Both the position numbers and the translations under genes were made by a program. A DNA stretch of 64,000 nucleotides from Cyanidioschyzon merolae (taxonomy: Eukaryota), in NCBI GenBank assembly GCA_000091205.1, contig AP006499.2. One strand, given 5' to 3'. This document shows, one piece after another, positions 4,528 to 55,267 of this stretch. Position 1 is the stretch's first letter, and every line of letters starts with the position of its first letter. A model generated the notes under the pieces. That model worked only from the letters and a program-made list of their open reading frames with translations. It did not search any database and was not told where the DNA came from.

Positions 4528-7227
4528 ATGAGCAGCGTATTTGAATGCCATACTGAAATTGAGACAGAATGTGTTCATGACGAATCCTATGGAACCTTCC
4601 GCGAACCTCTAGTCTATCGCAGTCAAAGACTATCAACGCAGACGCTACGCGAGAAGCTAGCCTTGTTGGAGCGGCGGCTCAATCCACGCCCCTGGGATGC
4701 GCGTACTGCCCAGAGCGAAGTGCTTCTAGTCAACAAAAAACCTCGCTTTTGTGTGGAGGGTTTTGAAAGGCTTTCTGGGAACTACTCTGGAGAAGAACTG
4801 GTGACAGCAGGAGCTGGTGCGCCGGCGGACTCTGCCGCGAAGCTCGCGACGCCAGAAGCGGAAACCTGGGTGTATTGCGCCAAAGCCGCTGCAGATGGTT
4901 GCGGCTCTTCGGTGTGTCGCCCAGGACAGAGTGATTCCAAGTCAGGTAGTGAAACTCGGCGAACTCCGATACCGCGTGGCGAACGAGTGCCTGGGAAAGT
5001 CGATGTCGTAGCAGCGGCGACGATAACGTCAGGGGCCGCAGAATGCGCGGATGCCTCGAGTGTAGATGCGAGCGGGAAACACACAGACCAGCTGCATCCT
5101 GGTCAATCTTCGTCATGTACGGACAACAGGTTCCAGGCGGAGATTCACGACCGTACTCCAGAACATAGAAACGAGAACGATCTGCGCTGCCCTGAGAGCT
5201 GTCACCGCCGCGGGTGTGAAGCTGGCGCAACGCCACCGCCCGGTTCGCAGTCAACGAGTCCCGGCAACTCTTGCAGCGTTGCGGAGACTATTCTAACCGT
5301 CTCGCGATTCGAAGGTAGAAGTGGATGCCAGACAGAGCTCGGCTCGCAGACACCGTCGCAGACTCCAGCAGCAACCGTCGATCGTAGCAGTTCGCCGGTA
5401 GCTTCCAACAGCGGGGAGAGAAGCTGTCGAAGCGAGCCGGCTCGCCATGCGCAAGAGTGGACGACCCCTGCCGCGGTCGCGGGTCAAAGCACCATGAATA
5501 GGCCCCGAAAGAGAAAAGCGCGCGTGCCTGCTGCGGAGGAGAACAACGGCCTCACACTGGATCAGTTTTTTTCGCGAGCGGAGAAAATGACGCCAAGTGC
5601 ATCGGCCGGAGCCTGCACGTTTGAGATGGATTCCATTGAGAGCGGGAGCAGCAGGGTGAGCGCTGCGGATGACGCTCCTGGATCGCAGAGCATCGCGGGT
5701 CAGCAGGACGCGCGGCTTGTCAAAGCCACCGCCTCTGTGGAAGAAATCCACAACCAGTATGTGCTCCAAATCGAAGGGCTCTCCACACAGCTCGAGGAGC
5801 TACGTGCTGTGGCGTTCGAGCTCGAGTCTACACAGGAACGCCTCTCCCAAGTAGAACGCACCGCCGGTGCACTCCGAAATGCGCTGATGGATGCCCTGCG
5901 GGAGCAAGGCCGACTCGAGCGAGGGCTGAACGCCCGGCTAGTCGCTGAAAAGTGTCAGAGGTTAGGGCAACCAGTTATTGCTCGCAGCGGCACTGCCCTG
6001 CAAGAAGTGTGGGAGGACGGATCTGAGTTTCAGCGTCTGAGTGAGCGTCAAAACGTCATCGCCGCGGAGCGAGAATCCATCGAGAGGTCACGGAAAGAGC
6101 TTAGCAGACTGCGCCGCCCCGCTCCTGGTCAAAATGATGCCACTGCAGATGCCCCGCAATGGCTGTCTATGTACATCGCAGAACAAGAAGAGATCTTTCG
6201 CGTGCGAATTCAGCTTCTGAAACGAGATGAAGCCGCTCTCGCCGAAGAGAGAGCGAAACTGGAATGCGAACGCGCAATGCTTCTGCGTGAACTGAAACGC
6301 GTTCGCGATGAGAGTGCCTCTCGATTCCGAGAATTTCCACTGCTTGCCGATCGGTATCTTCTTCTCCGCTTGCTCGGTCGCGGTGGCTTTTCTGAAGTCT
6401 GGAAAGCCTACGATATCGAGCAGGCCCGGTATGTCGCATGCAAAATCCACCAGCTCCACGCCTATTGGAGTGAATCGCGGAAGAGCAACTACATCAAGCA
6501 CGCTACCCGCGAGTATCGAATCCATGCGACGCTCAAACATCCCCGTATCGTGAGCTTGTACGATGTGTTTGAGATCGACGACCACACCTTTTGCACAGTA
6601 CTCGAGTACTGCGGTGAGGCCTGTGACCTCGACACCTATCTCCGGATGAACCATCACGTATCGGAGCGCGAGGCCAAGTCCATCATTGCACAGGTGTTGA
6701 GCGCTCTCCTCTATTTGAACTCACAACCCAAACGGATCATTCACTACGATCTCAAGCCTGGTAACATTCTGTACACAAACGGAGAGGTCCGCATCACGGA
6801 CTTTGGCCTCAGCAAGATCATGGACGAGAACCTGAACACCATGGATGGAATGGAACTAACTTCGCAAGGCGCTGGCACCTACTGGTACTTGCCCCCAGAG
6901 TGCTTTGAGGGCATCTCTGCTACGAGCGGCGCCACGGGTCCTCGAATCAGCAACAAGGTGGACGTCTGGAGTTGCGGTATCATCCTGTACCAGCTTCTTT
7001 ACGGTGTCAAGCCATTCGGAAACGACCTTTCCCAGGAACGAATTCTGCGTGATGGCACGATCCTCAAAGCGTCGGATCGAGACCTCTTCTTTCCGGCAAA
7101 GCCAGCGGTATCCACGGAGGCCAAAGATTTTATCCGTCTATGTCTCACGCGAAATCAAATGGATCGACCCGATATTCGCTCTATTGCGATGCACCACTAT
7201 CTTCGAGGGACTATAACGATGTCCTAA
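4528..7227 (+). CDS. TLK: Tousled-like serine/threonine protein kinase (C-terminal kinase domain, long low-complexity N-terminus with coiled coil)
   Basis: ATG at 4528, 899 aa. Kinase domain 'YLLLRLLGRGGFSEVWKAYD...HYDLKPGNIL...ITDFGLSKIM...GTYWYLPPECF' matches the TLK family ('LLGRGGFSEVYKAFD', 'HYDLKPGNILL', 'DFGLSKIM'). A preceding coiled-coil region is typical of TLKs. Confidence 0.85.
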   Translation: MSSVFECHTEIETECVHDESYGTFREPLVYRSQRLSTQTLREKLALLERRLNPRPWDARTAQSEVLLVNKKPRFCVEGFERLSGNYSGEELVTAGAGAPADSAAKLATPEAETWVYCAKAAADGCGSSVCRPGQSDSKSGSETRRTPIPRGERVPGKVDVVAAATITSGAAECADASSVDASGKHTDQLHPGQSSSCTDNRFQAEIHDRTPEHRNENDLRCPESCHRRGCEAGATPPPGSQSTSPGNSCSVAETILTVSRFEGRSGCQTELGSQTPSQTPAATVDRSSSPVASNSGERSCRSEPARHAQEWTTPAAVAGQSTMNRPRKRKARVPAAEENNGLTLDQFFSRAEKMTPSASAGACTFEMDSIESGSSRVSAADDAPGSQSIAGQQDARLVKATASVEEIHNQYVLQIEGLSTQLEELRAVAFELESTQERLSQVERTAGALRNALMDALREQGRLERGLNARLVAEKCQRLGQPVIARSGTALQEVWEDGSEFQRLSERQNVIAAERESIERSRKELSRLRRPAPGQNDATADAPQWLSMYIAEQEEIFRVRIQLLKRDEAALAEERAKLECERAMLLRELKRVRDESASRFREFPLLADRYLLLRLLGRGGFSEVWKAYDIEQARYVACKIHQLHAYWSESRKSNYIKHATREYRIHATLKHPRIVSLYDVFEIDDHTFCTVLEYCGEACDLDTYLRMNHHVSEREAKSIIAQVLSALLYLNSQPKRIIHYDLKPGNILYTNGEVRITDFGLSKIMDENLNTMDGMELTSQGAGTYWYLPPECFEGISATSGATGPRISNKVDVWSCGIILYQLLYGVKPFGNDLSQERILRDGTILKASDRDLFFPAKPAVSTEAKDFIRLCLTRNQMDRPDIRSIAMHHYLRGTITMS

Positions 7228-7288
7228 ATGGTCACCCGAAAGCCAGTGGTGTCCTGAATTTCGCCTGCAAACCCATGGAGCTCACAAC

Positions 7289-8209
7289 CTACAGACCCAC
7301 AAGATCGAGATGATTCTTCACAAACGCGAAATCACCCGGGTTCGTGAGCTCAAGCGGCGTGCGAATAGAATTGCACGACAACACCATGAGCTCGATCTGT
7401 GCGTCGTGGAGCAACTCGTTCAACATTGTGGACAGAATGTATTCCTTGTGCGCGTACACGTCGTTCTCGTCAGTGCTACACCGTTTCACGCTCTGCTGCT
7501 GCTGCTGAAGATGATGATCGTCACGCAGTGCCTCCAGCTCGGACAGAAAGCGTCGAAACCGCTCGTCGGCCCGAGCGAAGATGCTCGTATCGTGGAAGCC
7601 GAAAACGTTCATACTCGTGAGCTCGTCGCCAGTATAGCGACCTTCCTCAATATCTTCGAAGCCGATGTTGTACTGTTCGACAATTTCTAAAACTCGGTGT
7701 CGCTCATCTGTCTGAACGATGGCACGGTTAACTCGCCCTTCCTTGGGCAGCACTTCGCGCAACTTGTATCCAGGCATGCACGCGGTTTTCGCCGCCGTAA
7801 TGTGATTGCATACCAGTGACAGAGCTGCCACTCCGTATAAGGAATCACCATTCAGCACTATGAAAGGTCCATGAATATGCTCCCGCGCCGCAAGCAGTGC
7901 GTCCACGGTGCCCAGCGGTCGTTTTCGCCACGCCGGTACCCGTTGCACGCAAAAGTATACTGGGAGCCCATAAAACTGTTCGCCAATGAGGGCGTGAATC
8001 GGTAAGTGTGTAGCCTCCGACACCACGAAAACGAGACTCGATATCGCTGGATAGGCCTCGCAGAGTTGACGAACAGAGAGTTCCAGGAGGGTCTCGCCGT
8101 GGCGACCCACCTCCTGGAGGCACTTGATGCGCCCGCCAAACCGGGAAGAAAGCCCTGCTGCGAGGTACACCGCTTGAATTGTCGGTTTCACCGCTTCATT
8201 CTCCCTCAT
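7289..8209 (-). CDS. Sugar-phosphate nucleotidyltransferase-like protein (GT-A/NTP_transferase fold; IspD/GMPP-like)
   Basis: ATG at 8209. N-terminal 'AVYLAAGLSSRFGGRIKCLQ' resembles the (L)AGG-x-G-x-R-(M/L)-G...K nucleotide-binding motif. 'GTVDAL' and 'LNGDSL' resemble downstream motifs of the family. Confidence 0.55.
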   Translation of the reverse strand: MRENEAVKPTIQAVYLAAGLSSRFGGRIKCLQEVGRHGETLLELSVRQLCEAYPAISSLVFVVSEATHLPIHALIGEQFYGLPVYFCVQRVPAWRKRPLGTVDALLAAREHIHGPFIVLNGDSLYGVAALSLVCNHITAAKTACMPGYKLREVLPKEGRVNRAIVQTDERHRVLEIVEQYNIGFEDIEEGRYTGDELTSMNVFGFHDTSIFARADERFRRFLSELEALRDDHHLQQQQQSVKRCSTDENDVYAHKEYILSTMLNELLHDAQIELMVLSCNSIRTPLELTNPGDFAFVKNHLDLVGL

Positions 8210-8397
8210 GGGATTGTAAAGAATCAGAGTAAACGCTCAACAAGTGGCAGTGCCGACCAGCGTGCCACGTTGTCGCCGCAGGCGCTGGGGCGCGAGAGGT
8301 AAGCACCCGCGGACAACTGGCTAGTCTGCGCTGCGTATCGACGGCCTGAGGAGGTGCGCGCGCGCGCGCCCGCGCCTCTCGGCGGCATTTTGACACG

Positions 8398-8575
8398 ATA
8401 TGCCTGTGATACCTCTGATGCTACTGCCTCTGATGCTATTGCTGATGCTGGTGCCTCTGATACCTCTGATGCTGGTGCCTCTGGTGCATCTGGCGCTGAT
8501 GCCTCTGATGCTGGTGCCTCTGATGCCTCTGACGCTGCTGCCTCTGATCCTAGTGCTGATACTAGTGCTGATGCT
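8398..8575. repeat. Triplet-phased 6/15-bp microsatellite-like array (GATGCT/GGTGCC/TCT units)
   Basis: Visible imperfect reiteration 'gatgctggtgcctct' x ~12. Translates as D/A/S/G/T-rich low complexity on + and L/M/P-rich on another frame. No flanking coding context. Confidence 0.8.
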
Positions 8576-9394
8576 GCGTTTCTCTGGGTGCTGCAGACAC
8601 ACGCGGTGTCGAGAAATCGATGACGCGACCCGCATATCCTTCCCTCGGTTATGGAGTAGATTTGCGATGTGTGTAGCGCTAATGCAGATTTGTAAATTCG
8701 CTCTTAATGCAGATACTTGACAAAAGGGTGGCGCGCTCGCGCTAGAACGCAAGAGCGAAACAAACTCGCACAAGCGCACCTCTGATCTGAGACAACGAGG
8801 CAGTATTACGGGAAGACACTCATGAACAGCGAATCCGCATTCCGAAACGCTTGGCAAACGGATCGCTCTCGCCTAGCACGTGTCATGCACCGTACCTGAA
8901 AGCGATGTTCCTGCTGACTTTTCGTGAGGTGCTCTAGCCGGCCCCGAGCATAGCACTGTTCTCGTGCAGAAAGCAGTGTATGGTGTCTAGCGCGCCCGCT
9001 TCCAGTACCGATCGTGAGCATATGGACTATTCCTGGCATGAGACTCCGAGCCCCAGGCCGCAGTTCCCAGATCAGCGGTCGATATGCAAAACGCTCCGTG
9101 ATTGCTGCCACAATCACTCTGCAGATCACATCTTCGATCATAAGGGAAACGCGCATGAGAGCGCGTCGTTCCCACGGTCCTGAAGCAGCATGCTCCGCCC
9201 GCACATCATAAGGTATCTGTGCTGTGGAGCCGCCAGCACCCCGATGCTGGGGCAGCAGCGCGAACTCGCGGCTTTTGTGGAGTCCGCGCACCCCGAAACA
9301 CGCCTGCAGGGCCATGGGCACGGCAAAAGCAGCCACCGTGTCTGGCAGAAAGCCACAGCACCACTTTCATGGCTTGTCGTGGAGAATTTCGTTT

Positions 9395-9880
9395 CCGGTT
9401 TACAGCAACTCGGAATGAGCGTACAAGGCGTGTGCACCTCGTTTCGCTACGATACTTATAGATGAGTTCCGAACATCGTATACACACCACGAACTGGGGT
9501 GTACACTTCAGAAGGTCGAGCTAGGAAAGTGCCAGCGGAGCCCTGAGGATATAAAAAGCACGGACCGCTGACAGAAGCGCAACTGGAAAGGAGAGCGAAA
9601 GTTCGTGGACTACTTGCATTAGTGAGTACAACCAGTGACGGCAAGAAACGTATGGAGTTTGTGAATCGTGACTTTAACGCCGCTATCAATATCAGGAGGT
9701 GTGCGGTGCTGGAGACGAGACCTCCAGAGTTGACACGAGAGAACTTTATTGGACAACCTCTCAAGTCGAATTATATGAGACAAGATTGGAAGAAGTAGTA
9801 GGTGGCCAGTCGAGAAAAACTGGGAGGCGTCTGCACGTCAGTGGGAGACGTTTCGTATAGGGCGCTGGTCGCCACTACTG
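9395..9880 (+). mobile_element. TnpB/Fanzor-like transposon relic, locus B (3'-terminal ~480 bp)
   Basis: 'MEFVNRDFNAAINIRRCAVLETRPPELTRENFIGQPL' is the RuvC-III D-x-NAAINI-R signature. It is ~80% nt identical to the minus strand of 46418..46900 (locus C), including a near-identical ~60-nt block ('cgatacttatagatgagttccgaacatcgtatacacaccacgaactggggtgtacacttcaga') and the post-stop tail 'taggtggccagtcgagaaaaactgggaggcgtctgcacgtcagtgggagacgtttcgtatagggcgc..gccactac'. Confidence 0.55.
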
Positions 9881-9904
9881 CACACGCCCGTAGTCTTTCT
9901 CACA

Positions 9905-10795
9905 ATGCTACGGTGGTGGTGGTGGTGCAGAAGATTCAAAGCAAACTTGCCAGTTTCTACGCTGCGTGGTGAGCAGCTTTTCGGCTCCGCGCAGCACCGA
10001 AACCTAACCCAGTCGAGTTATGTCGGCGAGAGCGTCTACTTGTGGCAGAACAAGGCTCGCGTTCACGGGCTTGTGTCGCCACGCGAAATAGCTTGCAGTC
10101 CGCGCTTGAGAAGCATATTAAGCGGGGCACTGAGCCGACGTGGTTACTCGACTCCTGCTTCGGAGAGTGTCGACGTTCAGCGGCGTCTAGATGAGCAGCT
10201 CCGCGCCAAGGCTGCTATTGCGCTGGACCCGCAGGGCCTTGCGACAGTTTTGGCCGACTCGACCCGAATCGAAGAAGCTAACGCCACAGTGCAGCCCGAT
10301 TCTACCGCGAACGAAACGCAGGCACAGCAGCGACGACGTCGACGACGTCTGTATCCCGACGGTTCCGTGAACGCTACTGGACGACGGAAGACTGCCGTTG
10401 CAGTCGCGCGTCTCTTCCCGATAGAGTCGCCCGGAGGTCCGCAGTCGACCGCAGTCGATCATGAGACGCTCGTGGAACCCCGCTTTCGCGTCAATCGTCA
10501 GGATATCGCCGATTACTTCCTTCGTGTTGATCATCGTTTGGAGATCATGCGCCCGCTGATGCTCACCGGTATGGAGAACCGTTTCCATGTTCATGCGTTT
10601 GCACGCGGCGGGGGCATCACCGGCCAAGCCGAGGCTCTTCGACTTGCCATTGCGCGAGCTTTGGAGGATTACGACCCTGAGCTACGGCGTATACTCAAGC
10701 CGGCAGGTCTTCTCACGCGAGACCCTCGCATGGTTGAGCGGAAAAAGTACGGTAGGCACAAGGCCAGAAGAGCCTTTCAATGGGTCAAACGATAA
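9905..10795 (+). CDS. MRPS9: Mitochondrial ribosomal protein uS9m (S9/S16 family) with long N-terminal extension
   Basis: ATG at 9905. C-terminal 'GGGITGQAEALRLAIARAL...KPAGLLTRDPRMVERKKYGRHKARRAFQWVKR' is the conserved uS9 C-terminus. The long N-terminal extension is consistent with an organellar presequence. Confidence 0.8.
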   Translation: MLRWWWWCRRFKANLPVSTLRGEQLFGSAQHRNLTQSSYVGESVYLWQNKARVHGLVSPREIACSPRLRSILSGALSRRGYSTPASESVDVQRRLDEQLRAKAAIALDPQGLATVLADSTRIEEANATVQPDSTANETQAQQRRRRRRLYPDGSVNATGRRKTAVAVARLFPIESPGGPQSTAVDHETLVEPRFRVNRQDIADYFLRVDHRLEIMRPLMLTGMENRFHVHAFARGGGITGQAEALRLAIARALEDYDPELRRILKPAGLLTRDPRMVERKKYGRHKARRAFQWVKR

Positions 10796-29105: not shown

Positions 29106-29489
29106 GAGCCGCCACAACCTCCCGATTCTTTCTCTTCGATAGAAAGGTCATTCAGACCAGGAATCAGTAACGATGCGATGGATATCGCATATGCGTGATC
29201 AGAGCCGCCACAACCTCCCGATTCTTTCTCTTCGATAGAAAGGTCATTCAGACCAGGAATCAGTAACGATGCGATGGATATCGCATATGCGTGATCAGAG
29301 CCGCCACAACCTCCCGATTCTTTCTCTTCGATAGAAAGGTCATTCAGACCAGGAATCAGTAACGATGCGATGGATATCGCATATGCGTGATCAGAGCCGC
29401 CACAACCTCCCGATTCTTTCTCTTCGATAGAAAGGTCATTCAGACCAGGAATCAGTAACGATGCGATGGATATCGCATATGCGTGATCC
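29106..29489. repeat. 96-bp minisatellite, 4 copies, containing the perfect palindrome CGCATATGCG
   Basis: The unit 'gagccgccacaacctcccgattctttctcttcgatagaaaggtcattcagaccaggaatcagtaacgatgcgatggatatcgcatatgcgtgatca' sits at 29106, 29202, 29298 and 29394. It ends ~15 bp before the first ATG of the Ctf18-like ORF. Confidence 0.9.
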
Positions 29490-34651: not shown

Positions 34652-34900
34652 GACGAGCAAGCGCTCCAGGCGCTAACGAGTAATCCGTCATTTCGTGCGC
34701 GTTCATGCCTCAAACCAGCGTTACCGATCTTCAGTCCCAGTGTACATTTGCTTTTGCAAACTCGCAGTTACGACGAGCAAGCGCTCCAGGCGCTAACGAG
34801 TAATCCGTCATTTCGTGCGCGTTCATGCCTCAAACCAGCGTTACCGATCTTCAGTCCCAGTGTACATTTGCTTTTGCAAACTCGCAGTTACGACGAGCCT
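34652..34900. repeat. 120-bp minisatellite, ~2.1 copies
   Basis: The unit 'gacgagcaagcgctccaggcgctaacgagtaatccgtcatttcgtgcgcgttcatgcctcaaaccagcgttaccgatcttcagtcccagtgtacatttgcttttgcaaactcgcagttac' sits at 34652 and 34772 with a partial third copy. Confidence 0.9.
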
Positions 34901-37569
34901 ACTGCGAAAGCGATGTGGCCTCTGGTTGCTCGCCCTGCATGGAAACGCACCTTCGATTTTCTCGCCATGTGACGTTCGATCAGCTCACCACACACCGTAT
35001 CGCGCATCCGACTACGCTCTATAGTCTTCTTCTGTACTGGTTTCAGCGCACGCCCGTACTCGTGGTTCGAGTACGTCGTACTGAATTCATGGATGGGAAT
35101 CGTGCAGCACCGAAACCTGCACGCGTTGGACGCGCTCGTCGAAATGGGCAGCGGCGCAGTATTTGCGAGTTTCAGCCTGTCCCGTGCCAAGGGCTGCTGC
35201 AAAATGACGCAAATTTTTGAGCTACTCCTTTTCCAGCTCGTTGAATAGCAAGGCGAATGTCCGCCTCGTGCCTCCCTACATCCGAAACATTACGAGGCTC
35301 TGGCGCGGTCGGATATACTCTTGCCAAAAGTCGTCGAAACGAACAATTTGGACGCTCATTTACTCACTGAATGCAGCGTACCATACCAATCGTTGCTTCT
35401 CGATACAGTGACGAGAGCGTCGAGATCGGTCCTGCCGTCGTCATGCCACTTGTTGATATGCTTCCTCACGACCACTGGGCCCGAACTTAGATAATATCGA
35501 GGCTCAGAAAAAAAGTCAGGCCGTGGTGCATCTTCAGTACCGCCCGTCGGTTGTTCCACAAAGGTTTGACCGAGGAATTCTGGGGGCATGTGAGCGCCTG
35601 GTAGCACCTCGCCCCGAACTCCGACAATCATCTCACTGACGTTGTACGTCAAGGCAAGTGGGGCCGAACAAGACCTTCCCGAAAAAGAAGCTGCAGAGTC
35701 CTTCATGGCTTCCCGCATCTCACAGTTTTGTAAGATTCTTCCCGTAGATGCGTTTTCGTACGGAGCTCTTGCCAATGATTTCACGCAGATCCTTTCACAC
35801 AGGCCGTTTTGCGTTCACGTACTTTCTCGTCCTCTTTCTGAGCGGATCTTTCTCTTCTTTCTTCTGTGGTTTCTTCACTGTCTCGTTTGCATGATGGAAG
35901 GGCACGGGTGCCGTCGCTTAGCTCTATGTCCGTTTCTCCCTTGGGTCCTAGACGCACTGGATGGATGTTGCGACGGATCTTGGCTTTCTCTATCTTTGTA
36001 TCCACTATACTTCGAGCATCTTTTCGCCAACAACCCCGATGCAAGCACGTCTGCGAACCGAAATGCGCCTTTCCATTCTCTTCTGCTATCGAGCACATAC
36101 GCAACGCCGTTGCTCACGGCTAGTGAGGCTAATGAACGGCTTTCCAGAGAAAAATTCGTCTACGAACGGTGTCACGGATGCGAATGAATCGTCTATGGAT
36201 GCGAAAGCTTACAAACGGCGTTTGACAGCATAGAAGCTGCTTCCGATTTGATACAACCAAGGAGAATAGGCTGCCACAAAGTGCAGATTAACGCCATCAC
36301 CGGCTGTGCGCTCTCTGGCCAGTTTTCGGGATGCAAAGCGACGTAGTCTACGAGCCGGACAGAAGACCACCGGAAGAAGAACCCGCAATGCGCTCCGATG
36401 AAGGAAGAGGCGTCAAACGATCCCGTCTGTTTGGGGATGATTCGGTGAGCAAACGACAGCATCGCCGCTCGGGCTGATGTCGCTTTCATTCCCGCTTGTC
36501 TTTTCTTTACGAAGAGCGGTGTGCCGCTACTCTAGGACCCCAACACAGGTCTACCATTTCTCCGGAATGAAGTCAGGTCGACTAAAACGAACATCCGTGC
36601 CACGTGTCGTCAGCGTTCGTGTTCCAGTACGAATTCGCTGGAGTGCGCTTCGTCAGCGTGCGATGCGCTCCCGAAGAAGCGCGCGTCGTTCTTCGCCTAT
36701 CTGCATCGCTTCACCACTGTTCGTTATCAAGGGTATGGAAACGTTGCATGCATGCTGTGGGTTTTTGGTAGTATTTCATAGAGAACGGATGCAGTGGCAT
36801 TGCCTGGCGAGGAAACTGTTGTATATATTGATTCTGATGAGTTCGAGTTCGATTGCTTGACGCTGAGCATATCGCCTAAGCGAACGTTCCTTCATCAACT
36901 TGCTGAAAGTTCAGTAGCTGATTCGTAAGAGGATGACCTGTTTCCGCAATCAAGCAGCAACAGCATAAAATCTTTCCACATTCTCACTCCATTCCGAAGG
37001 ATACAGTTATTTTGTTGCATACCTGCGAAGAAATAAACCAGGACAAAAAGTATATTCTGGTTGAGGTATTCTGGTACCACCGATTATGAGCGTAACGGTA
37101 GCGGCAGCGCGTCCGTGGGCATCGCCGCTGTCGCTCTTCGAACCGACGCCCTTTGTGGTTCGGCACTGCCGTTCTGTCTCCGTGCAGCGACCGCACCGGC
37201 GCTACAGGCGCTATTGCTGCCGGTTTCGGCAGGCTCGGCACACGATAGGGCGTATGAAACGACCAGAATATCCGAGATGAAGTATAGGTCATGTAACCTG
37301 AGAGTAGGAGGTTGATGGCTACCTCACCGCACACTGAAAGAAAAACACACACAAAGAAAATAAGAAACGAAAAATGCGCATAATCGGAGAACGCTGGCCT
37401 ATGGAAACGTTTTGTCCATGAAAAGAAAATGTGCCGCTGTCGCTGCGATCGGGTTGAAGGGCAGCGCGCCGGCGGCGGCGGCGGCAGCGCCAGCGACCCT
37501 AGACACTAGTCATAACCTCGCCGCTGCTGACATCATTCTATTGCCGCTGCGGCCTTTCAGAGCTTTTTG

Positions 37570-46356: not shown

Positions 46357-46417
46357 AAACACACGAACAGGCGACCTTTCTCGCGCCTAAACGACAAACG
46401 TTGCTGCGGTCGACAGC

Positions 46418-48710
46418 ATCGTAGTGGCGGCGAACGCGCCCTATCCAAGACGTCTCCAACTGATGTGCAGACGCGTCCCAGTCTTTTCGGACCGGCCACC
46501 TACTAATGCATTCGACTTCTTCTCGTATATATCCATCTTGACAGATTGTCCCACAAAATGCTCTCGTGTCAATTCGGGAGGTCTCGTCTCCAGCACCGCA
46601 CATCTTATGTTGATTGCGGCATTAAAACGTCGGTTCACGAACTCCATATGTTTCTTGCCGTTGCTTTTAGAACTCACTCATGCACGTGGCCCTTCAACTT
46701 TCATCCTCCTTTCCATTTGCTCTTCCGTCAGCGCTCCGTACTTTTCTATATCTTCAGGGCTCAGCTGACACTTTTCCATCTCGACTCTCTGAAGTGTGCA
46801 CCCCGTTCATGGTGTGTATACGATGTTCGAAACTCATCTATCGGTATCGTAACGATACGCCTGGCGCATTCCTTGTACGTTTTTGTCGACGGAGCTGGCG
46901 TAGTCCCTTTTTTGGACGCCCTGCTGCATATGCTTCTACTAGCCTTTGACTCTCGTCCTCCGTGAAAGCGCTCAACTGATTGAAAAAGTTGGCGAATGCA
47001 CGCTGCTTCCTACAGTACATGTTCATACGCTGCCGAGCCGGCCGGGGCGTGGTACACTCTCCTCACAGCACATCCCAATGAGCAACGCGAACTTGTATGA
47101 ATTTCAGAAAAGCCTCAAAGTTCGCGCCGCGGCTCGTCACCTCGCTCAAAGCTTCCAGGTGCTCTTTCACTCCTGCATGCCATGTCTCACTTTTCTTCCT
47201 CGCATTCATGATTCCCGATTCTCGATAGAATCCCGCTCTCGAGAATCTCAAAAGACGCACGTCTTTCTGGCGCAAGTTACCGTCGATGCTCTCTTCCATA
47301 CGCTTCGGTGCTGCGATGGTTCTGATTATCGTGTGTTCCCATGGTCCGAGCCAGTGACAAAATCGTTACCCTGAACTTTCTGCGTCACTGGATCCGCCTT
47401 TTTGTTTTCTTCATGCTTCGTCATGGGCGATATCGAAGACGTAACTGGACGTTTCGCCTTCAAGCGCCGATAGTGTACGCACATGGCTACTCCATCGGTT
47501 TCGATTATCCCAGTGAATACCTTTTGCTTGCTTACTTTGAGTCGTTTGAAATCGAAGGTATTCTTCCAGTAGGTCTCCCGGTTTTCACCGGGGAACTCCG
47601 TGTTGCTTTCATCGAACTCCGGACGGATCTCCTTCGTGATGCTGTAGAGGACTCTGGAGTCGATGGTCACAAAATTTGACTCGATGTTGCACAACGGAAC
47701 GCAATTGAAGCGCTTCCCCATTAGGAAAGCCTTACGTCTCTCCCACTCTTCATTGTTTTTCCTTACTCAGCTTCATCTCCGCGTTGCGTTCTAGTTCTCG
47801 GTTCAAAAACATGAAATATCGCAAGACGAGGCGATTGTATCTTTCCTTATCTTTTTTTCAACTCTGATATCTTTTCCGCTGGACTCGCCAGCCCCAGTAC
47901 CGCACGGTGCTCTTGTATAACCGCACGGATTACGGAAGCTTCATTTGTGCCCTCGTTTGACGCCTTCTTGTCGACGAATTCGACCTCATCTTCATGCTTG
48001 GGATCCTTCGTGATGCCATTGATAATCGCCCACATTCCTTTGCGAGAGATGCCAGGGTACAGCGCAAACACGGCGCGTATCATGAAATGTTCGAGGTTCA
48101 CTGTGAAATGGTTCTTCAGGTTCGTGATGTACTTCATCGCTCCGTAGGTGTAAATATCCGCTTCACCCTTGTATCGAGTACCGTTGAAGCGGTATTCGGC
48201 GTAATTTTCGTGAACGCCATGCACTCGCTCATTTCTCCTCGACGGTTCCCCTGTACCAAGCATCAGGTGACGAATAAAGGTCTTGTCGAAAAACTCGTAC
48301 GGAACCTCGTCTGTTTCCATGTGCGTCACGTCGCGATACATCTCCTTTACGAAATGCAGCAGTCCTGACGATGCCTTTACAATACTCATGGGGTACGAGT
48401 CGACACGGTTTCTGATGGCGTCTCGCAACTTTTGCCTGCAGAGATCCTTGATATGCCCAAAAAGACAGGCTTTCACCACCATCTCGTCGTTGTGTCGTCT
48501 TTCGTGCGGGTTCTGACTTCGGGCTTCCCTGTTTTGCTTCTTCGTCTTGTCTTGTTCCTCTTTGCTCCGCCATGTTTTTCGTTGTCTCCGGCAGCCAGTG
48601 ACATTTAGCCTCCAGGTCCTCAACTTGCTTTTCCATAACTTTCTTGTATTTATTTTGGAAAGGAACGCACGTAGAACGCTTCTGCTACAAACGGCGAAAA
48701 TCACTTGAAT
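46418..48710 (-). pseudogene. Decayed Fanzor/TnpB-like (IS200/IS605-family RuvC nuclease) gene, locus C, the longest copy
   Basis: The minus-strand ORF fragments 47847..48704, 47326..47721, 47063..47299, 46838..47026 and 46441..46677 lie in frames 2,0,1,1,0 and are separated by stops or frameshifts. The final fragment reads '...KKHMEFVNRRFNAAINIRCAVLETRPPELTREHFVGQ' (RuvC-III). '[11 protein letters not shown]' is RuvC-I-like. 'IPIDEFRTSYTHHERG' is a Cys-to-His-decayed zinc-finger remnant. 'CTLQRVEMEKCQLSPEDI' is separated from the RuvC-III frame by a single TGA. The region is AT-richer than its flanks. Confidence 0.5.
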
Positions 48711-48921
48711 GAGCTTACTTGAGGGTTGGAAAACAATTCAGCTGAAAAACTATACTTTGCTATTACTTGAACGCAAATACAACTTTTACGGTAGAACAAC
48801 ACGCAAATATTCAGGATCGCGTTTCCCTTCAACGGCGAGATACTCCTCCTGTCTCATGCCTGCCAGATATCCCAGGTGTGCGTATCGACCACGCTATATA
48901 GAACAAATAACAGAGACTAAC

Positions 48922-49572
48922 GATGAACTAGCAACGATATAAATATTTATTCCCCCTAGATGAAACGTTAAAAACGGTAAAGGCTTCCCGTACTGTCGAA
49001 AGTTTACCTTACAGGCGGAGGGTCCCGCGAGCCGGGCGACTCTGCTGGGCTGGTGCCCGGTGTGCCTCTAAAGTGGCAGGTGCTGTGGCGAGACCTGAGC
49101 AACTCGTCCGAAACGCAGTTCAAGCTGGAATAAGGGGCATTTGGCCTGCGTTTCAGCGTCGCCCCGGTCGCAGTGGACTCCCAGCATATCGCTTCGCGCT
49201 GCCGCAGACAGTATGTCTGTCCGCGTAGCTTGCAGGCTCCCCGAATAATTATGTATTCCGACCTCGTGTCGAGTGCACCACGCCTCGAGTCAACGCCCGC
49301 AGCGGAACAGCAAAGCCGTACAGTCTCCGGGATATATCTGCTCTGGCGGTTTTGGCGCCACCGCGGGGGCCGCAAGGCAGGCACTCAGCACACGATAGCG
49401 TGTACAAAACGACCCGTATACTCGGGAGGAAGTAAAAGCAATGGAACTTGAGGGCAGGTGCTTCATGATGGACGCCTTTTCGATTACCACTATCCATCCC
49501 GCAATCTGGGATCCATGGTCGATGGAGACGAATTTTGTCATCGGAAAAAATCGATCGCCATCCCATCGGCCT
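48922..49572. repeat. 650-bp dispersed direct repeat, copy 1 (98.5% identical to copy 2)
   Basis: Aligns base-for-base with 50844..51505 (about 9 differences). It lies ~110 bp upstream of the Rab ATG (49782). Confidence 0.9.
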
Positions 49573-49781
49573 GATGGCGCTCCTGATGGCAATGCGCGCC
49601 TGTATACAACAGGGGCGCGAAACTGTCTCGGTTCCCATACGGGTCGTGTTTCACGTTAACGCTGCTCGACTCCTGTGTGTTTGTGTGTGCCCGACGTGAT
49701 AGTGGCCAAGCGGGAAGGCTCGCCCTTCTTTCCATTGAACCGTTATGCGTGGAATCCTCACCTGTAAAACTACCTGTTGTG

Positions 49782-50384
49782 ATGCAGAGACCTTTGGTTG
49801 CGCTGAAGATCGTTCTCGTGGGCAATAGTGCAGTGGGCAAGTCATCTCTCTTGCTACGATTTGCGGAAGGCACGTTTGCGGAACTGCCAGCCACAGTAGG
49901 CGTAGACTTTCGAGTGATCTCACTGGAAAACGTCCAGGGCTATCGTGTCAAACTCACCTGCTGGGACACCGCGGGACAGGAAAAGTTTCGCACCCTGACG
50001 TCATCTTATTATCGCGGTGCACACGGTGTTATTATGGTGTACGGTATAGATGATCCAGAGTCGCTGAAGCATCTTGAGACAGCTTGGCTAGAAGAAGCGA
50101 GACGGTATGTGAATAACCCAAACGCTGTTTATATGATAGTGGGCAACAAATCGGACCTGCCGACTGCTGTGGTGCCCAGGGCAGACGGGCGGCGACTCGC
50201 TGAGCGTGTTGGCGCACTCTTTCTCGAGACAAGTGCAAAGTCAGGTTCTGGAGTATCGGAGTGCTTTGTAGAGCTTGTTGCACGTATATTGGAGGCACAA
50301 CCCCATGTAACAGGTGATGGCGAGCAAGCAGGAGTTCAACTGGAAGCCGGTCCGTATCATGAAACAGCCTCATGTCTTTGTTGA
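49782..50384 (+). CDS. Rab-family small GTPase (Rab18-like), C-terminal CxC prenylation motif
   Basis: 'KIVLVGNSAVGKSSLLLRF' (G1), 'TVGVDF' (switch I), 'WDTAGQEKFRTLTSSYYRGAHGVIMVYGIDD' (G3/switch II), 'GNKSDL' (G4), 'ETSAKSG' (G5). The protein ends '...SCLC*'. ATG at 49782. Confidence 0.85.
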   Translation: MQRPLVALKIVLVGNSAVGKSSLLLRFAEGTFAELPATVGVDFRVISLENVQGYRVKLTCWDTAGQEKFRTLTSSYYRGAHGVIMVYGIDDPESLKHLETAWLEEARRYVNNPNAVYMIVGNKSDLPTAVVPRADGRRLAERVGALFLETSAKSGSGVSECFVELVARILEAQPHVTGDGEQAGVQLEAGPYHETASCLC

Positions 50385-50843
50385 TCATCGCCGAGCTGAG
50401 CATCGCGCTGTGCACACTAGACATGATTCGGAAGCGATGGACCTGGATTTCGAGCCGAGTGGGGAGGCTCTGCAGCTGAATAGCACCAAGCTTGTAAAAT
50501 TCTCCTAACAACATACATATTTGCAGACATTAGGTAGTGCACAATTTGATGACCCGCACAACAGCGAGTTTGCGGTATGTCTCGAAAATCCAGTGGGCAT
50601 GTGCAGAGATACACATATGAGGTACAAGGCAAATTCCACAAGAATCCGACGATGCGTCTCAAGTGTACGGATTGTTTGTCCACGTCATCGGTGCATAAAG
50701 AAGCCGCTACACGGCACCGTGACGCAAAGACAGGTATCACACCGACGCTTTCAGAAAAGTACACACTTTGCGTAGCGCATTGCTGCGCGTCTTTCCAAGG
50801 TCCAGCGAAACCGAATCGAGCCTAGATCGAGGTGCACAGCAGG

Positions 50844-51505
50844 AGACTAACGATTAACTAGCAACGATACAAATATTTATTCCCCCTAGATTAAACGTTA
50901 AAAACGGTAAAGGCTTCCCGTACTGTCGAAAGTTTACCTTATAGGCGGAGGGTCCCGCGAGCCGGGCGACTCTGCTGGGCTGGTGCCCGGTGTGCCTCTA
51001 AAGTGGCAGGTGCTGTGGCGAGACCTGAGCAACTCGTCCGAAACGCAATTCAAGCTGGAATAAGGGGCATTTGGCCTGCGTCTCAGCGTCGCCCCGGTCG
51101 CAGTGGACTCCCAGCATATCGCTTCGCGCTGCCGCAGACAGTATGTCTGTCCGCGTAGCTTGCAGGCTCCCCGAATGATTATGTATTCCGACCTCGTGTC
51201 GAGTGCACCACGCCTCGAGTCAACGCCCGCAGCGGAACAGCAAAGCCGTACAGTCTCCGGGATATATCTGCTCTGGCGGTTTTGGCGCCACCGCGGGGGC
51301 CGCAAGGCAGGCACTCAGCACACGATAGCGTGTACAAAACGACCAGTATACTCGGGAGGAAGTAAAAGCAATGGAACTTGAGGGCAGGTGCTTCATGATG
51401 GACGCCTTTTCGATTACCACTATCCATCCCGCAATCTGGGATCCATGGTCGATGGAGACGAATTTTGTCATCGGAAAAATCGATCGCCATCCCATCGACG
51501 CGCTT
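50844..51505. repeat. 650-bp dispersed direct repeat, copy 2
   Basis: See copy 1. It lies ~118 bp upstream of the p23 ATG (51623). Confidence 0.9.
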
Positions 51506-51622
51506 CCAATGCCTTCGCGGAGCCGACGGCGTCCGCGTGTCCCGCAGCATCCGTATCTTGTTGCGTCTACTTAGGTGCGCAACACAGGTAACAGAGTATT
51601 CGTCTGAGATCAGGTACGTGAA

Positions 51623-52333
51623 ATGGTGCTTACTCCAGATTTTTGTTGGGCGCAACGCAAAGACAAGGTATTCGTCACCGTGAAGGTTCCAAACGTGCAG
51701 AAAGACACTGCTGTCCTGAAGGTCACCCCCGAAGGACAGGTGTACTTTAAGGGAACCGGCGGTGAGATTGGGCACGAACGGGAGTATGAGCTCGACATTC
51801 GGTTGCTTCACGGAATCAAGGCGGAGGAAGCACAGCACGGCATCCAAGCGAGGCAAGTGTACTTTGTGTTGCCTAAAGCGGAGGCCGGTGAATGGTGGCC
51901 ACGACTCCTTCACGATCCGGGCCGAAATGTACACCTGTCCGTGGACTGGAACCTCTGGGTCGACGAGGACGAGGATGATCAGTTTGATTTCGGTAGTCAC
52001 TTTGGATCGCGTGATATGGCCGACCTGGACTTTGGAATGGGTGACGACGACGACCTTGGTGACGACGAGGACGACGACGACGACGACGAAGGCGTTGATG
52101 GCGAGGGCGGCCTCGGCGACACGGAAGAAAAGGAGGACGCCCAGGAAGCCGCGGCGGACGTGACGCCGACGTTGTCTGAGAACCACATGCACCGCGATCA
52201 GGAGGCAGATGAGAATGACGTTGTTAAGAGCGAGCCAGGTACCGTGACTGAGGCTGCCAAGGATCTGGGTAAAAATGCCGAGTCCGTACAGGCAGCGTCA
52301 ACCGAGGGGCCTGCGTCAGTGTTTTCCTCTTGA
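51623..52333 (+). CDS. p23/Sba1-type Hsp90 co-chaperone (CS domain + acidic tail)
   Basis: 'LTPDFCWAQRKDKVFVTVKVPNVQKDTAV...' follows the p23 N-terminus ('WYDRRDYVFIEFCVEDSKDV'). 'WPRLLHDPGRNVHLSVDWNLWVDEDED' follows 'WPRLTKE..K.NWLSVDFNNWKDWEDD'. An acidic D/E-rich tail closes the protein. Confidence 0.8.
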   Translation: MVLTPDFCWAQRKDKVFVTVKVPNVQKDTAVLKVTPEGQVYFKGTGGEIGHEREYELDIRLLHGIKAEEAQHGIQARQVYFVLPKAEAGEWWPRLLHDPGRNVHLSVDWNLWVDEDEDDQFDFGSHFGSRDMADLDFGMGDDDDLGDDEDDDDDDEGVDGEGGLGDTEEKEDAQEAAADVTPTLSENHMHRDQEADENDVVKSEPGTVTEAAKDLGKNAESVQAASTEGPASVFSS

Positions 52334-53818
52334 GCTGGACACGAGGCTTGATAGGTTGCGTACAACTGCCAGCGATTATTTTCAGTAAAAGATTCACAAA
52401 AATCGTGCACAAGATGTTTACCATCGTTTAACCATAGTTTTTCTCCAGTAATAGCATTCTAGGCCTGAGCATACCGCGCCGTGCGGCGGCAGCATGGTCG
52501 ATTGCGTGCCTGGGCCCTGAGCGACTGAAAATCCATCGTGTTCCGAGCGCTGTGCTCGCAAACCTCGTTCACAGTTGTTCCATGAGGTCTGCATACCCGC
52601 CAGAAGCTGTGATCTGCAGCAAGTGGCGAGCTTGTCTAGAACAGCGCGCGGCAGGTCGCCGAGAGTTGTGTTGTGTCATGACTTGTGCGGCATTTTCGGG
52701 TATTACATACGAGCTGCCCGAGCATACCACCAGATGATCCGTTTCTTGAACAGGGCAGTGAGGAATCCCAAAGTTGCCTGCACCGATGCGGGTGCGTCAG
52801 CAGACACGCGCGCATAGATTCATGGCGCACGACACATCGCCGCCGTCGTTATCACGCGCGCGCCTTCCGCACACCTTTCTCGGATCCATGGACGAATGTC
52901 TCAAACAATGGCTCACGCATTCTGTCCACTCATGTATCCGAAGCGCACACCGTGCACTCGGATTCCGGTTAAAGCGATGCAGTTCAACTGGGGCCGGCTC
53001 CGCACGCGACTCAGGGAATGCACCTGAACTGCGACCAACACGCTTTCAGTCCGTGCGTTCGTTCGAAGCTCTGTACGCGCATTGGCTGATCATGGAACCC
53101 GATTTTGTCTAAGTTCAGGTTTCCGGGTGTGTTGCTCGGAGAGGACGTGCGTGCCCAAGTCGTGCATTACCCTGGTGTAGCAAATACAATGCGTTTTGCG
53201 CATTTCTGTGATATGCGACCAAGACACTGCTGCTTCGGAGTGTATGATCCTCTCAGCAACTGAAGTTGACACCCCAGGAGCACCGGCATGAATCACCCTG
53301 TCTCCGTGCAGCGTCCGCAGCGATGCTGCGGGCACCCCGGTGACCGCTCACGAGAGGCACGACACCCCGAGGATCGTATGAATGTTTCACGATCCCCCAA
53401 GTCTCGATAGGACGTGTTCGTCGTCTGTGGAGGATCTTGTGCGGAGTAGTGATTACGTCCCTGAATGCCGATACCAGCTGACAGCCTGACCATCCATCGG
53501 TAGCTTCATAGAACCGCAGCCCCCGCCCCCGCCACCGGCACCATCGAAAGCGAAACATGCGCTGAAATACAGCGCAGCGGATGGATCCTGTACATACTAG
53601 GTTAAAGACATCCACAAGATGATCCACGGACCCCTGTGTCATGGCGTGCATGCGCATCGCCCGCGGCATCGCGAGGCGCACGCCGCCTCGAATCCAACGG
53701 GAGGCAACGGTGCGTGCGCTGCTGCTGATGCGTGCTGCGGATCCTCTGACGCGGGTACGCCTGTTGCGCTTTCGACGTGTAGGCACCTTGCGAGCGGTGA
53801 TCGAAGCGCTAGATTCTA

Positions 53819-55267
53819 ATGCATTGTGCACGCTTTGTATTAGCGTTAGGTCGGCGTGACTTGCGTAGGGCAGAGAAGAGTTGGCCGAGTGATGTATGGA
53901 AAAGGGCGGTGCGAGCGCTGAGCACCTCAAGCGCCACATCGCTTCAAGAGGCCGTGCGCTCAAAGATTGAGCCGATGCGAGCTCAAGTCCACGAGGTTCG
54001 GGAACGATTCGGTGAAGAAGTTCTTGACGCGTGCACCGTTAATCAGGCCTACGGTGGGATGCGCTCTCTGAAGGCCATGGTCTACGAGACGTCACTCCTT
54101 GATCCGCAGGAAGGCATTCGTTTTCGGGGGTTTTCGATCCCCGAGTGTCAACGGTTGTTGCCAAGAGCAAAGCCCTCGGGCGAGCAACCACTTCCCGAAG
54201 GGCTTCTGTGGCTCCTCCTGACAGGTGAAATTCCGACGGAGTCGCAGGTCGAGAGCGTTTGCCAGGATTTGAAGCGGCGGGCAGCCGTTCCCCCGGAAGT
54301 GTTGCGCTTGTTAGACGAACTACCCCACGAGCGCATGCATCCCATGACGCAGTTCTCGGTAGCTGTTAGTCTTCTGCAGCATGAGTCAAAGATGGCAGAG
54401 GCGTATGCGCAAGGCGCTCCCAAGTCGACCTTCTGGGAATACTGCTTGGAAGACGCATTGACGCTTATCGCTCGGTTACCAGCAGTGGCTGCGAGAATCT
54501 ACCGTAATACGTTTCACGGCGGAAAGCATGTGCCAGCGGAAAAAATTGAAAAAGTCGATGACATGGGCATGCGTTTGGCGAGGTCACTAGGCTTTGAATT
54601 GAACGAATTTGATGAGTTGATGCGGTTGTACCTGGTGCTTCACGCGGATCACGAAGGTGGAAACGTGTCGGCGCATGCCGTGCGCCTGGTCGGTTCGGCG
54701 CTAAGTGACCCGTACTTGTCATTTGCAGCTGGTCTGAACGGTTTGGCGGGACCATTGCACGGCCTGGCAAATCAGGAAGTTTTGCGTTGGCTGCTACAAA
54801 TGAAAGAAAAGCTCGGCAATCGTCCGATGACGACGGAGAATCTGAGGGAACTCTGTTGGGAGACCCTGCGAGAAGGCCACGTCATTCCGGGGTTCGGTCA
54901 CGCGGTCCTGCGGCGAACCGACCCGCGCTACACAGCGCAGCGTGAATTCGCACTCAAGCATTTACCGCACGACGAGATGTTCCAGCTTGTTTCCAAGTTA
55001 TACGAAGTCGTTCCGCGGGTGCTGGAGGAGCAGGGCAAAGTGAAAAACCCGTGGCCCAATGTCGATCAGCATTCAGGAATTCTGCTTCGCTATTATGGAT
55101 TGGTCGAAAGCAACTTTTATACGGTGCTCTTCGGCGTGAGTCGGGCACTGGGAACGCTCTCCTCGCTCGTGTGGGACCGTGCTCTTGGTCTGCCCATTGA
55201 ACGCCCCAAATCAGTCACGACGCAATGGATACGAGAACACTTCGAGAAGCGTTCGGTTTCTGCATAG
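53819..55267 (+). CDS. CS: Citrate synthase, mitochondrial-type, with N-terminal presequence
   Basis: '[15 protein letters not shown]', '[14 protein letters not shown]' and '[10 protein letters not shown]' are the citrate synthase active-site motifs (H274, H320, D375 equivalents). ATG at 53819. The N-terminal stretch is R-rich. Confidence 0.9.

Follow-up and report, generated by a model that had tools for sequence, protein, structure and literature searches.

Retroposons with a 3′ tail in common with a partner LINE are known from "stringent" LINE/SINE pairs, for example UnaL2/UnaSINE1, and from HAL1-type derivatives. The repeats analysed here are most closely related to CMe-1A, a Fanzor1 element of Cyanidioschyzon merolae that is 3169 bp long and has ~150 copies, which are ~80% identical to their consensus (Bao & Jurka 2013, Mobile DNA 4:12, PMC3627910). 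The 5′ 635 bp of CMe-1A are equivalent to TE-N2_CMe, which has ~70 copies per C. merolae genome and was left unclassified in 2013; the names are those of Repbase (Bao & Jurka 2013, PMC3627910). A search for subsequent publications on CMe-1A turned up only this 2013 paper (PMC3627910).

The window that we analysed is a stretch of 64,000 nucleotides of C. merolae contig AP006499.2. It contains two repeats in direct orientation, with start positions 1930 bp apart according to a repeat search, MAFFT and blastn alike. The repeats and their surroundings are as follows.

46384..48912, minus strand: rest of the CMe-1A to which copy 1 belongs, a 5′ leader followed by a degenerate Fanzor1 ORF that is split into at least four frame segments relative to the 734-aa consensus ORF (alignment, tblastn)
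48913..49568, minus strand: repeat copy 1, 656 nt, TE-N2_CMe-like 5′ module of a full-length CMe-1A (MAFFT, blastn, consensus alignment)
49782..50384, plus strand: Rab-type GTPase gene between the copies, with a 200-aa product from the likely ATG at 49782, as in the Cyanidiococcus orthologue
50843..51497, minus strand: repeat copy 2, 655 nt, solo TE-N2_CMe matching consensus 1-628 at 80.6% (MAFFT, blastn)
51623..52333, plus strand: p23/CS-domain gene, 126 bp past the end of copy 2

Copies 1 and 2 are 98.6% identical, with 8 substitutions and a 1-nt indel, and MAFFT finds their flanking sequences unlike each other. The repeats start with GAGAC and end with CATCG. An earlier note on this DNA had reported such a pair at 48922-51505, and the pair is real, although these limits are ~9 nt off at each end. 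That note was also right that other repeats in the window are far less alike (the Fanzor relics are 66-79% identical in blastn) and that the copies are non-coding; the ORFs inside them have no Pfam match. Its distance of ~110 bp to the downstream gene applies to a GTG-started ORF (109 bp), but the likely Rab ATG is 214 bp away and the p23 ATG 126 bp. Perfect coding or tandem arrays are likewise present in the window.

Positions 1-3130 of the published CMe-1A consensus align to 49543->46421 on the minus strand with 84.9% identity. A global alignment carries the 3′ end of the element to 46384, such that copy 1 and the Fanzor relic next to it jointly correspond to consensus positions 1-3169 at ~85%. 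Consensus positions 1-628 correspond to 49543->48913 in copy 1 and to 51473->50843 in copy 2. Given that the consensus aligns end to end at 49543->46384, copy 1 forms the 5′ module of a single CMe-1A that is full-length but frameshifted, while copy 2, which matches positions 1-628 only, is a solo TE-N2_CMe. The suggestion that the duplication might be transposon-associated, made because copy 1 abuts the Fanzor relic, thus holds in a stronger form. In a tblastn search, residues 18-733 of the consensus Fanzor1 ORF are covered by the relic, and RuvC-type motifs (TDGV and NAAINI) are visible. However, the ORF pieces fall in frames -3/-1/-2/-3, and the Fanzor1 copy at 46384-48912 is therefore a pseudogene. 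We found no inverted repeats of at least 30 nt within 47000-53500. By eye, there is a weak, palindrome-like resemblance of 12-17 nt around AACGTT.

Both repeats are, judged by these alignments, copies of the already catalogued TE-N2_CMe, and in this respect the finding is ordinary. We found 43 stretches with the family core in hot-spring metagenome contigs, where the same-species origin of non-orthologous contigs is an assumption. Among long metagenome relatives, identity to the consensus is 68-85%, and near-full-length relatives at other loci are 73-74% identical to the repeat. The earlier note had held that many genomic copies would make the repeat a plain non-autonomous TE. In substance this is the case, in view of ~70 TE-N2_CMe and ~150 CMe-1A copies (PMC3627910) and the 43 metagenome stretches. 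This is an old family, its members being ~80% identical to the consensus, and it looks long inactive, with frameshifted Fanzor and LINE ORFs in every locus inspected.

The order RAD50 (minus strand), Rab, p23, citrate synthase is identical in Cyanidiococcus yangmingshanensis, where citrate synthase is 82% identical, and this synteny indicates that the Rab gene is ancestral at its position between the copies. A trypanosomatid source for the DNA, to which the intronless genes might point, was rejected on the citrate synthase match and this synteny. No homology to the repeat occurs in the Cyanidiococcus intergenic regions. The CMe-1A 3′ end and the RAD50 start codon (46356/46362) are separated by 22-28 nt, and the part of the RAD50-Rab spacer that is not TE is ~240 bp, compared with 200 bp in Cyanidiococcus. 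Upstream of p23, the promoter-proximal block conserved with Cyanidiococcus starts exactly at the end of copy 2. Ancestral promoter DNA is thus kept outside the insertions. The CMe-1A (46384-49568, minus strand) sits in an ancestrally 200-bp RAD50-Rab intergenic region, and copy 2 is a solo TE-N2_CMe between Rab and p23.

The ancestral position of Rab also bears on a reading of the repeat-Rab-repeat arrangement as an LTR retrotransposon. LTR pairs are recognized by TG...CA termini, a 4-6-bp target site duplication (TSD), a PBS and PPT and an internal region owned by the element. We rejected this reading: the termini are GAGAC and CATCG, there is no TSD and the "internal" Rab is syntenic in Cyanidiococcus.

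The positions beside gene starts could instead reflect function, with the repeat being a multicopy structured RNA gene or a promoter/5′-UTR cassette for Rab and p23 that is kept by selection. Both copies are oriented like the gene immediately downstream, a short family member also lies upstream of a NOP56/58-like gene, and no part of the family is better conserved than the core. However, family members also adjoin unrelated genes, in both orientations and nested with LINE and Fanzor relics, and the orthologous Cyanidiococcus intergenic regions are devoid of the element despite conservation of the genes and promoter-proximal blocks. Rfam yields nothing credible, either at the gathering threshold over the whole window or at E<=10 over the repeat and 36900-37600. 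For 17 diverse cores, the RNAalifold energy is -10.7 kcal/mol, to which covariation contributes ~0 (-0.01 kcal/mol). We therefore consider a functional unit very improbable, and the idea of a multicopy RNA gene under concerted evolution, raised in the earlier note, is not supported, given the lack of an Rfam match (E<=10), of a tRNA-like head and of covariation in the 17 members. The position of the copies next to gene starts is explained by the compactness of the genome, which tolerates them nowhere but in intergenic DNA, and not by a role as promoters or RNA genes.

Another RNA-based candidate was the omega-RNA of Fanzor/TnpB. The genes for such RNAs sit at the 3′ end of the nuclease ORF or overlap this end, beside the right end of the transposon. 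The repeat lies on the 5′ side of the ORF (consensus 1-635, with the ORF starting near 905), and we rejected the omega-RNA reading because this is the wrong side.

A different relationship emerges when the repeat is read antisense to Fanzor. In this direction, it has a core of ~200 nt and a terminal motif (AAACGTTTTGTCA..GAAAAA) in common with the 3′ end of a LINE that encodes RVT_1. The relevant stretches are the following.

49285..49467, plus strand: LINE-shared core in copy 1 (repeat positions ~373-555), also present in the LINE 3′ end and in 295-nt members
51215..51397: equivalent core stretch in copy 2
37135..37429, plus strand: short superfamily member of 295 nt, a copy of the LINE 3′ end with an exact 12-bp TSD (GCCGCTGTCGCT), upstream of the NOP56/58-like gene

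The repeat and the LINE tail are 68-70% identical over ~200 nt. At least six LINE fragments have an RVT_1 ORF and ORF2 C-terminus followed on the same strand by core and tail; the RVT_1 ORF (Pfam, E=2.6e-23) and ORF2 C-terminal sequences are directly upstream of the core in L008, L016, L021 (twice), L026, L036 and L045. When the 5′ 370 nt of the repeat were compared with LINE ORF2 regions by tblastx, no convincing coding homology emerged outside the core. In several metagenome loci (L026, L045 and L011/L014), the LINE tail abuts the Fanzor unit in the opposite relative orientation, which counts against the overall reading given below.

Short members have exact TSDs of 9-15 bp at their boundaries, and only 1.3% of shuffled flanks reach 10 nt or more. 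A long member (L016/L020) has an A-rich end followed by a 12-13-bp TSD, (A)TCGATACGTGTA. The A-run is present at both window copies, but no TSD is recognizable for copy 1, copy 2 or the whole CMe-1A copy, including on inspection of the flanks. There is also no tRNA-, 5S- or 7SL-type head (ARAGORN found no tRNA, and Rfam was empty at E<=10 over 48800-49700), so TE-N2 is not a canonical SINE.

The shared core and terminal motif, the A-rich ends and the 9-15-bp TSDs in relatives suggest that this family, unclassified in Bao & Jurka (2013), retroposes in a LINE-dependent manner, a result that goes beyond their paper. TE-N2, antisense to Fanzor, would be a retroposon mobilized by a non-LTR retrotransposon with a common 3′ end. 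Insertion would proceed by target-primed reverse transcription (TPRT), which would account for the A-rich 3′ end, the variable TSDs and 5′ truncation. We put the probability of our overall reading at roughly 85%: the repeats are a pair of TE-N2_CMe sisters, copy 1 within a pseudogenized CMe-1A and copy 2 solo, of a LINE-mobilized retroposon. A more far-reaching version is doubtful. In it, the whole CMe-1A composite would be mobilized by the LINE through the common 3′ tail, as a 3.2-kb retroposon with an antisense gene for a TnpB-like RNA-guided nuclease, and solo TE-N2 copies would be its 5′-truncated or internally initiated progeny. If true, this would settle the "unknown" class of 2013 and add a retrotransposon to the DNA-transposon vehicles for Fanzor.

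The two window copies are sisters. They have 131 differences from the consensus in common, whereas copy 1 has 6 private differences and copy 2 has 2. This agrees with the earlier view that they are very recently related (98.6% identity; 131 shared versus 8 private differences). Moreover, positions 49544-49568 of copy 1 consist of an A-rich run, GAAAAAAT, and 17 nt that are otherwise found only in copy 2, which has the same A-run and the same extension; this 17-mer occurs at only these two places in the window. At the other end, the 5′ limit of the identity between the copies is within ~7 nt of the published TE-N2 boundary (consensus 628 versus 635). Given the 131 shared differences and the common 17-nt flank, either one copy was recently templated on the other or gene conversion keeps the pair alike.

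Conversion would mean that two old, independent TE-N2/CMe-1A insertions flanking Rab were repeatedly homogenized, in a form of concerted evolution. On the Fanzor side, the identity goes no further than the homology does, as conversion would require, and diagnostic variants are shuffled between the copies in different strains: repeat position 633, for example, is deleted from copy 2 in the window, whereas metagenome contigs L047 and L025 have this 1-nt deletion in copy 1, and just one site is seemingly fixed between the copies. Contig L033, in which the copies are fused into one and Rab is missing, is the expected recombination product. However, short-read metagenome assemblers, unable to phase a repeat of 656 bp, would produce the mosaics and the collapse in L033 just as readily, and L025 is a loop contig. 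The 17 nt past the A-rich terminus are also identical, although the flanks of independent insertions should stay unconverted. Finally, because other members are ~73% identical to these copies, conversion would have to be uninterrupted since insertion. We regard this explanation as possible but the less probable one.

Alternatively, a DNA-level segmental duplication, such as break repair templated on the neighbour, could have copied the 656 bp from one intergenic region to the next without transposition machinery. Neither copy has a TSD or extra poly-A, and the common 17-nt flank is in keeping with such an event. A third, near-identical "master" copy was also not found, in that all ~99%-identical matches to a core pattern with 22 specified bases come from this locus. 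However, one breakpoint would have to fall within ~7 nt of the TE-N2_CMe end (628 versus 635) inside a 3.2-kb element, which has a chance of about 1 in 200 if breakpoints are random. We judge segmental duplication unlikely, even more so than conversion.

We infer retro-copying, and not duplication at the DNA level or conversion, as the origin of the pair. Not long before the divergence of the sampled strains, one copy would have served as template for the other, and the copying would have taken in the entire TE-N2 unit along with 17 nt of 3′ flank. No A-rich sequence lies beyond the 17-nt extension at either copy, which leaves retro-copying undemonstrated for these two. As the family seems long inactive, retroposition as young as 1.4% divergence is also less expected.

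The earlier note had considered that the pair might be an assembly artefact, i.e. a falsely duplicated or collapsed repeat. Metagenome contigs L001, L002 and L003 do break at or inside the copies, and L033 has a single copy and no Rab. However, the independent contig L047, from another sample, contains copy 2 and, because the locus is cut there, just 268 nt from the 3′ end of copy 1, and repeats the arrangement with a spacing of 1929-1930 bp. L025 and L002, from other samples, carry copy 2 with the Rab segment. Since the copies also differ at 9 positions and in their flanks and Rab is syntenic in Cyanidiococcus, there is next to no chance of an artefact. An exact-protein look-up of Rab for a separate Rab contig in sample Ga0080006 returned nothing on record. 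Direct repeats flanking Rab break or collapse short-read assemblies, and L033 therefore appears to have no Rab. Such a conserved but repeat-flanked Rab calls for caution with gene presence/absence calls in cyanidiophyte metagenomes. The pair also shows recent copying or homogenization between neighbouring TE copies in a compact red-algal genome. The homology to the LINE end and the TPRT-style TSDs are of modest use for TE annotation and bear on the spread of Fanzor in eukaryotes.

Among known systems, TE-N2_CMe and CMe-1A themselves are closest. The likeness consists in homology over the whole length, ~80% identity to the consensus, the lack of terminal inverted repeats and a multicopy, dispersed distribution, and nothing essential differs. 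Relative to the rest of the TE-N2_CMe family, however, the window pair is unusually alike (98.6%, where members are otherwise ~80% identical to the consensus) and has a private 17-nt 3′ extension.

New copies that carry the downstream flank of their parent are known from L1 3′ transduction and from the "fuzzy right ends" of Replitrons (Craig 2023, PMC10288648). The window copies resemble both in the 17 identical nt past the family terminus, which are expected with read-through from one copy. The differences are that there is no poly-A or TSD after the extension and that the repeats have no associated Rep/HUH gene. Replitrons were not detected in red algae (Craig 2023, PMC10288648).

Compared with stringent LINE/SINE pairs, TE-N2 differs in having no pol III-type head, in the joining of the module antisense to Fanzor1 in CMe-1A and in the lack of TSDs at the window copies. 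It resembles these pairs in the LINE-shared core and motif, in its A-rich 3′ end and in having relatives with 9-15-bp TSDs and 5′-truncated copies.

The earlier note described near-identical direct repeats beside a Rab gene, and repeat finding, MAFFT and self-blastn all agree that the pair is real:

48913-49568: copy 1, 656 nt
50843-51497: copy 2, 655 nt

The copies are direct repeats 1930 bp apart with 98.6% identity (8 substitutions and a single 1-nt indel; pairwise MAFFT). Self-blastn of the window revealed no third full copy within it, and the remaining dispersed repeats are less alike (66-79% identity), as the note had said. None of the repeat-internal ORFs (126, 92, 129 and 100 aa) matches Pfam. 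Downstream of copy 1, the likely Rab ATG at 49782 follows after 214 bp and the GTG at the start of the Rab ORF after 109 bp; downstream of copy 2, the p23/CS-domain gene has its ATG 126 bp away. Four perfect or near-perfect tandem arrays in the window (29104-29488, 27104-27470, 16598-16818 and 34652-34898, with periods of 96, 93, 74 and 120 nt) have 2-4 copies at 97-100% identity, exceeding the homogeneity of the repeat pair. Self-blastn also aligned about 1 kb at 21964-22937 with 57233-58205 (65% identity), probably paralogous genes, and 2238-2434 matches 57680-57877 at 69%.

The repeat is an already known element. C. merolae contains ~150 copies of CMe-1A, a 3-kb Fanzor1 element, each ~80% identical to the consensus, and a separate element, TE-N2_CMe (~70 copies), shares 95% identity with the 635 bp at the 5′ end of CMe-1A; both elements are without TIRs, and their TSDs and class were left unassigned (Bao & Jurka 2013, PMC3627910). 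Positions 1-3130 of the 3169-bp CMe-1A consensus (Additional file 2 of Bao & Jurka 2013) align to 49543->46421 at 84.9%, with the 3′ end reaching 46384 in a global alignment, and positions 1-628 align to 51473->50843 at 80.6%. Therefore, copy 1 and the abutting Fanzor-like relic form a single full-length minus-strand CMe-1A, whose Fanzor ORF is split into at least 4 frame segments. Copy 2 is recognizable by its sequence as a solo TE-N2_CMe. The consensus alignment confirms the transposon association that had been suspected and refines it to CMe-1A/TE-N2_CMe, and the ~70 and ~150 published copies match the outcome that the earlier note had named as refuting its idea, namely many copies of a plain non-autonomous transposable element.

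Two isolated CMe-1A fragments also occur in the window:

3947-4296, + strand: consensus 2737-3088, 71%
9417-9885, + strand: consensus 2665-3137, 89%

Both match only the 3′ end, where a Fanzor omega-RNA and right end would be expected, and 5′ truncation in TE-N2 polarity (antisense to Fanzor) does not explain them.

The citrate synthase encoded at 53819-55267 is 82% identical to its Cyanidiococcus yangmingshanensis orthologue and has a 100% match only in a JGI metagenome protein. Because of this similarity to Cyanidiococcus, a GC content of ~55% and long, uninterrupted ORFs, we assign the window to a cyanidiophycean red alga. RAD50 (- strand), Rab, p23 and citrate synthase have the same order in Cyanidiococcus, where RAD50 and Rab are just 200 bp apart with no Fanzor relic, and the intergenic DNA shows no detectable similarity to the repeat. 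Rab thus occupied this position ancestrally, and the repeats and Fanzor relic are lineage-specific insertions around it.

The proposal that the repeats are an RNA gene family is rejected, given that the repeat has no Rfam match even at E<=10 and that RNAalifold on 17 diverse cores (the part shared across the family) yields a covariation term of zero (-10.7 kcal/mol). A promoter role is without support, as ancestral promoter-proximal DNA is retained outside the insertions. The non-transposon part of the RAD50-Rab spacer (~25 + 214 bp) is in line with the 200-bp ancestral spacer, and the block upstream of p23 that is kept in Cyanidiococcus begins exactly at the end of copy 2; the insertions therefore lie just outside the retained DNA. 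Their siting 5′ of genes reflects where a compact genome tolerates insertions. At 46356-46384, only 22-28 nt separate the 3′ end of the CMe-1A copy from the start codon of RAD50, which lies on the same strand, so RAD50 may have its promoter or 5′ UTR inside the transposon.

A scan of JGI metagenome contigs with a pattern of 22 specified bases drawn from the repeat found 43 stretches (numbered with L below), which blastn divided into orthologues of the window locus (~99%) and many other loci. Among the orthologues, L047 has copy 2 together with the 3′ portion of copy 1, spaced as in the window (~99%), and L025 and L002 have copy 2 with a Rab segment (~99%). At other loci, near-full-length relatives are 73-74% (L012/L046 and L013/15/16/20/39) or 68% (L021) identical to the repeat, and L028, L032/44 and L040 have partial relatives. 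A shorter element of ~295 nt, which also has the terminal motif AAACGTTTTGTCA..GAAAAA, occurs at many loci, and the common core is ~180 nt (repeat positions ~373-555). The window has two further family members:

37135-37429, + strand: short member, 295-nt copy of a LINE 3′ end
28277-28529, same orientation as both repeats: diverged core, CMe-1A consensus 13-249, 68.5%

The short member, with relatives at >15 metagenome loci (75-89% identity), precedes a NOP56/58-like gene (37567-39234) by ~140 bp. At L026 8774-9085, a further CMe-1A relic stops so near a glycerol-3-phosphate dehydrogenase-like gene that a single ORF (6680..9085) spans both. In some relatives, part of the Fanzor ORF (consensus 2117-2197) is tandemly repeated 3-4x in units of ~75-78 nt, leading to a repetitive acidic insert (ORF 9334..10173):

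L026 9797-10027
L045 4298-4528
L030 8185-8330

On the window + strand, antisense to Fanzor, the core reads as the 3′ terminus of a non-LTR retrotransposon. L016 has an ORF matching Pfam RVT_1 (E=2.6e-23) and an ORF2 C-terminus bearing a CCHC-like motif, both continuing into the short element without a change of strand, and the layout from ORF2 C-terminus to tail is also found in L008, L021 (twice), L026, L036 and L045. Short members have sharp ends with exact TSDs at their boundaries, and some that bear TSDs are 5′-truncated; in a shuffled-flank control, >=10 nt were shared in only 15/1150.

TSDs of short members
Window 37135-37429, + strand: exact 12-bp GCCGCTGTCGCT
L044: TCGAAAGAGTATC
L018/L037: ATCGCGCCCTCGC
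L019/L017: ATACAGCATGCAGTG
L040: TGCGCGAATCG

The long, TE-N2-type member in L016/L020 has the end GAGACAAAA, with (A)TCGATACGTGTA on both flanks, and the 5′ ends of long members in TE-N2 polarity are scattered from consensus positions 550 to 661. We infer that TE-N2_CMe is probably a LINE-dependent retroposon. A canonical SINE is ruled out because a tRNA-like head and an Rfam match are absent. The whole CMe-1A composite, which has Fanzor in antisense, may move in this manner too. In L026, L045 and L011/L014, the LINE tail joins the Fanzor unit with the opposite relative orientation. Junctions with the LINE 3′ tail directly upstream of the Fanzor unit on the same strand, opposite to the published CMe-1A consensus, are as follows:

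L026 11579-11855
L045 2474-2750
L011 3361-3655 / L014 5074-5368
L021 12926-13107

The Fanzor unit next to such tails starts at consensus positions ~640-700, so the 5′ edge of the unit seems to have been joined to LINE-derived sequence repeatedly.

Copies 1 and 2 themselves are sister sequences: 131 differences from the consensus are common to both, with 6 private to copy 1 and 2 to copy 2. On the Fanzor side, their identity stops ~7 nt or less from the TE-N2 boundary as published. Toward the opposite end, it extends beyond the consensus terminus into an A-run (GAAAAAAT) and then 17 nt (CGATCGCCATCCCATCG); this 17-mer is found nowhere in the window outside the two copies. All ~99% matches to the repeat in the JGI metagenome blastn belong to the window locus, so there is no separate master; one copy served as the template for the other. 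Both the unit-level boundary and the carried-over flank are as expected from read-through copying (3′ transduction). However, no TSD was found around copy 1 or copy 2, so a duplication at the DNA level may instead have produced the pair. Gene conversion between the copies is a serious rival or contributor, given that diagnostic variants are assigned differently to copy 1 and copy 2 across strains and that contig L033 fuses both copies without Rab. Short-read assemblers also yield such variant mixing and such a fusion at a 656-bp repeat; L025, for instance, is a loop contig. The copying of one copy from the other is about as old as the sampled population, since divergence between the copies (1.4%) is similar to that between the window and orthologous metagenome contigs (0.4-1.1%). 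L033 (Ga0080006_1145879), a 131-kb metagenome contig with 99.3% identity to the window, carries the repeat once (5418-6073) and is missing the 1274-bp Rab segment (window 49569-50842); either the assembler collapsed the loop, or recombination between the direct repeats really deleted the segment.

The only unusual feature of the pair is the recent local copying or homogenization of two neighboring copies of TE-N2_CMe/CMe-1A. Beyond Bao & Jurka 2013, the LINE tails and TSDs provide a modest new lead on the classification of this family.
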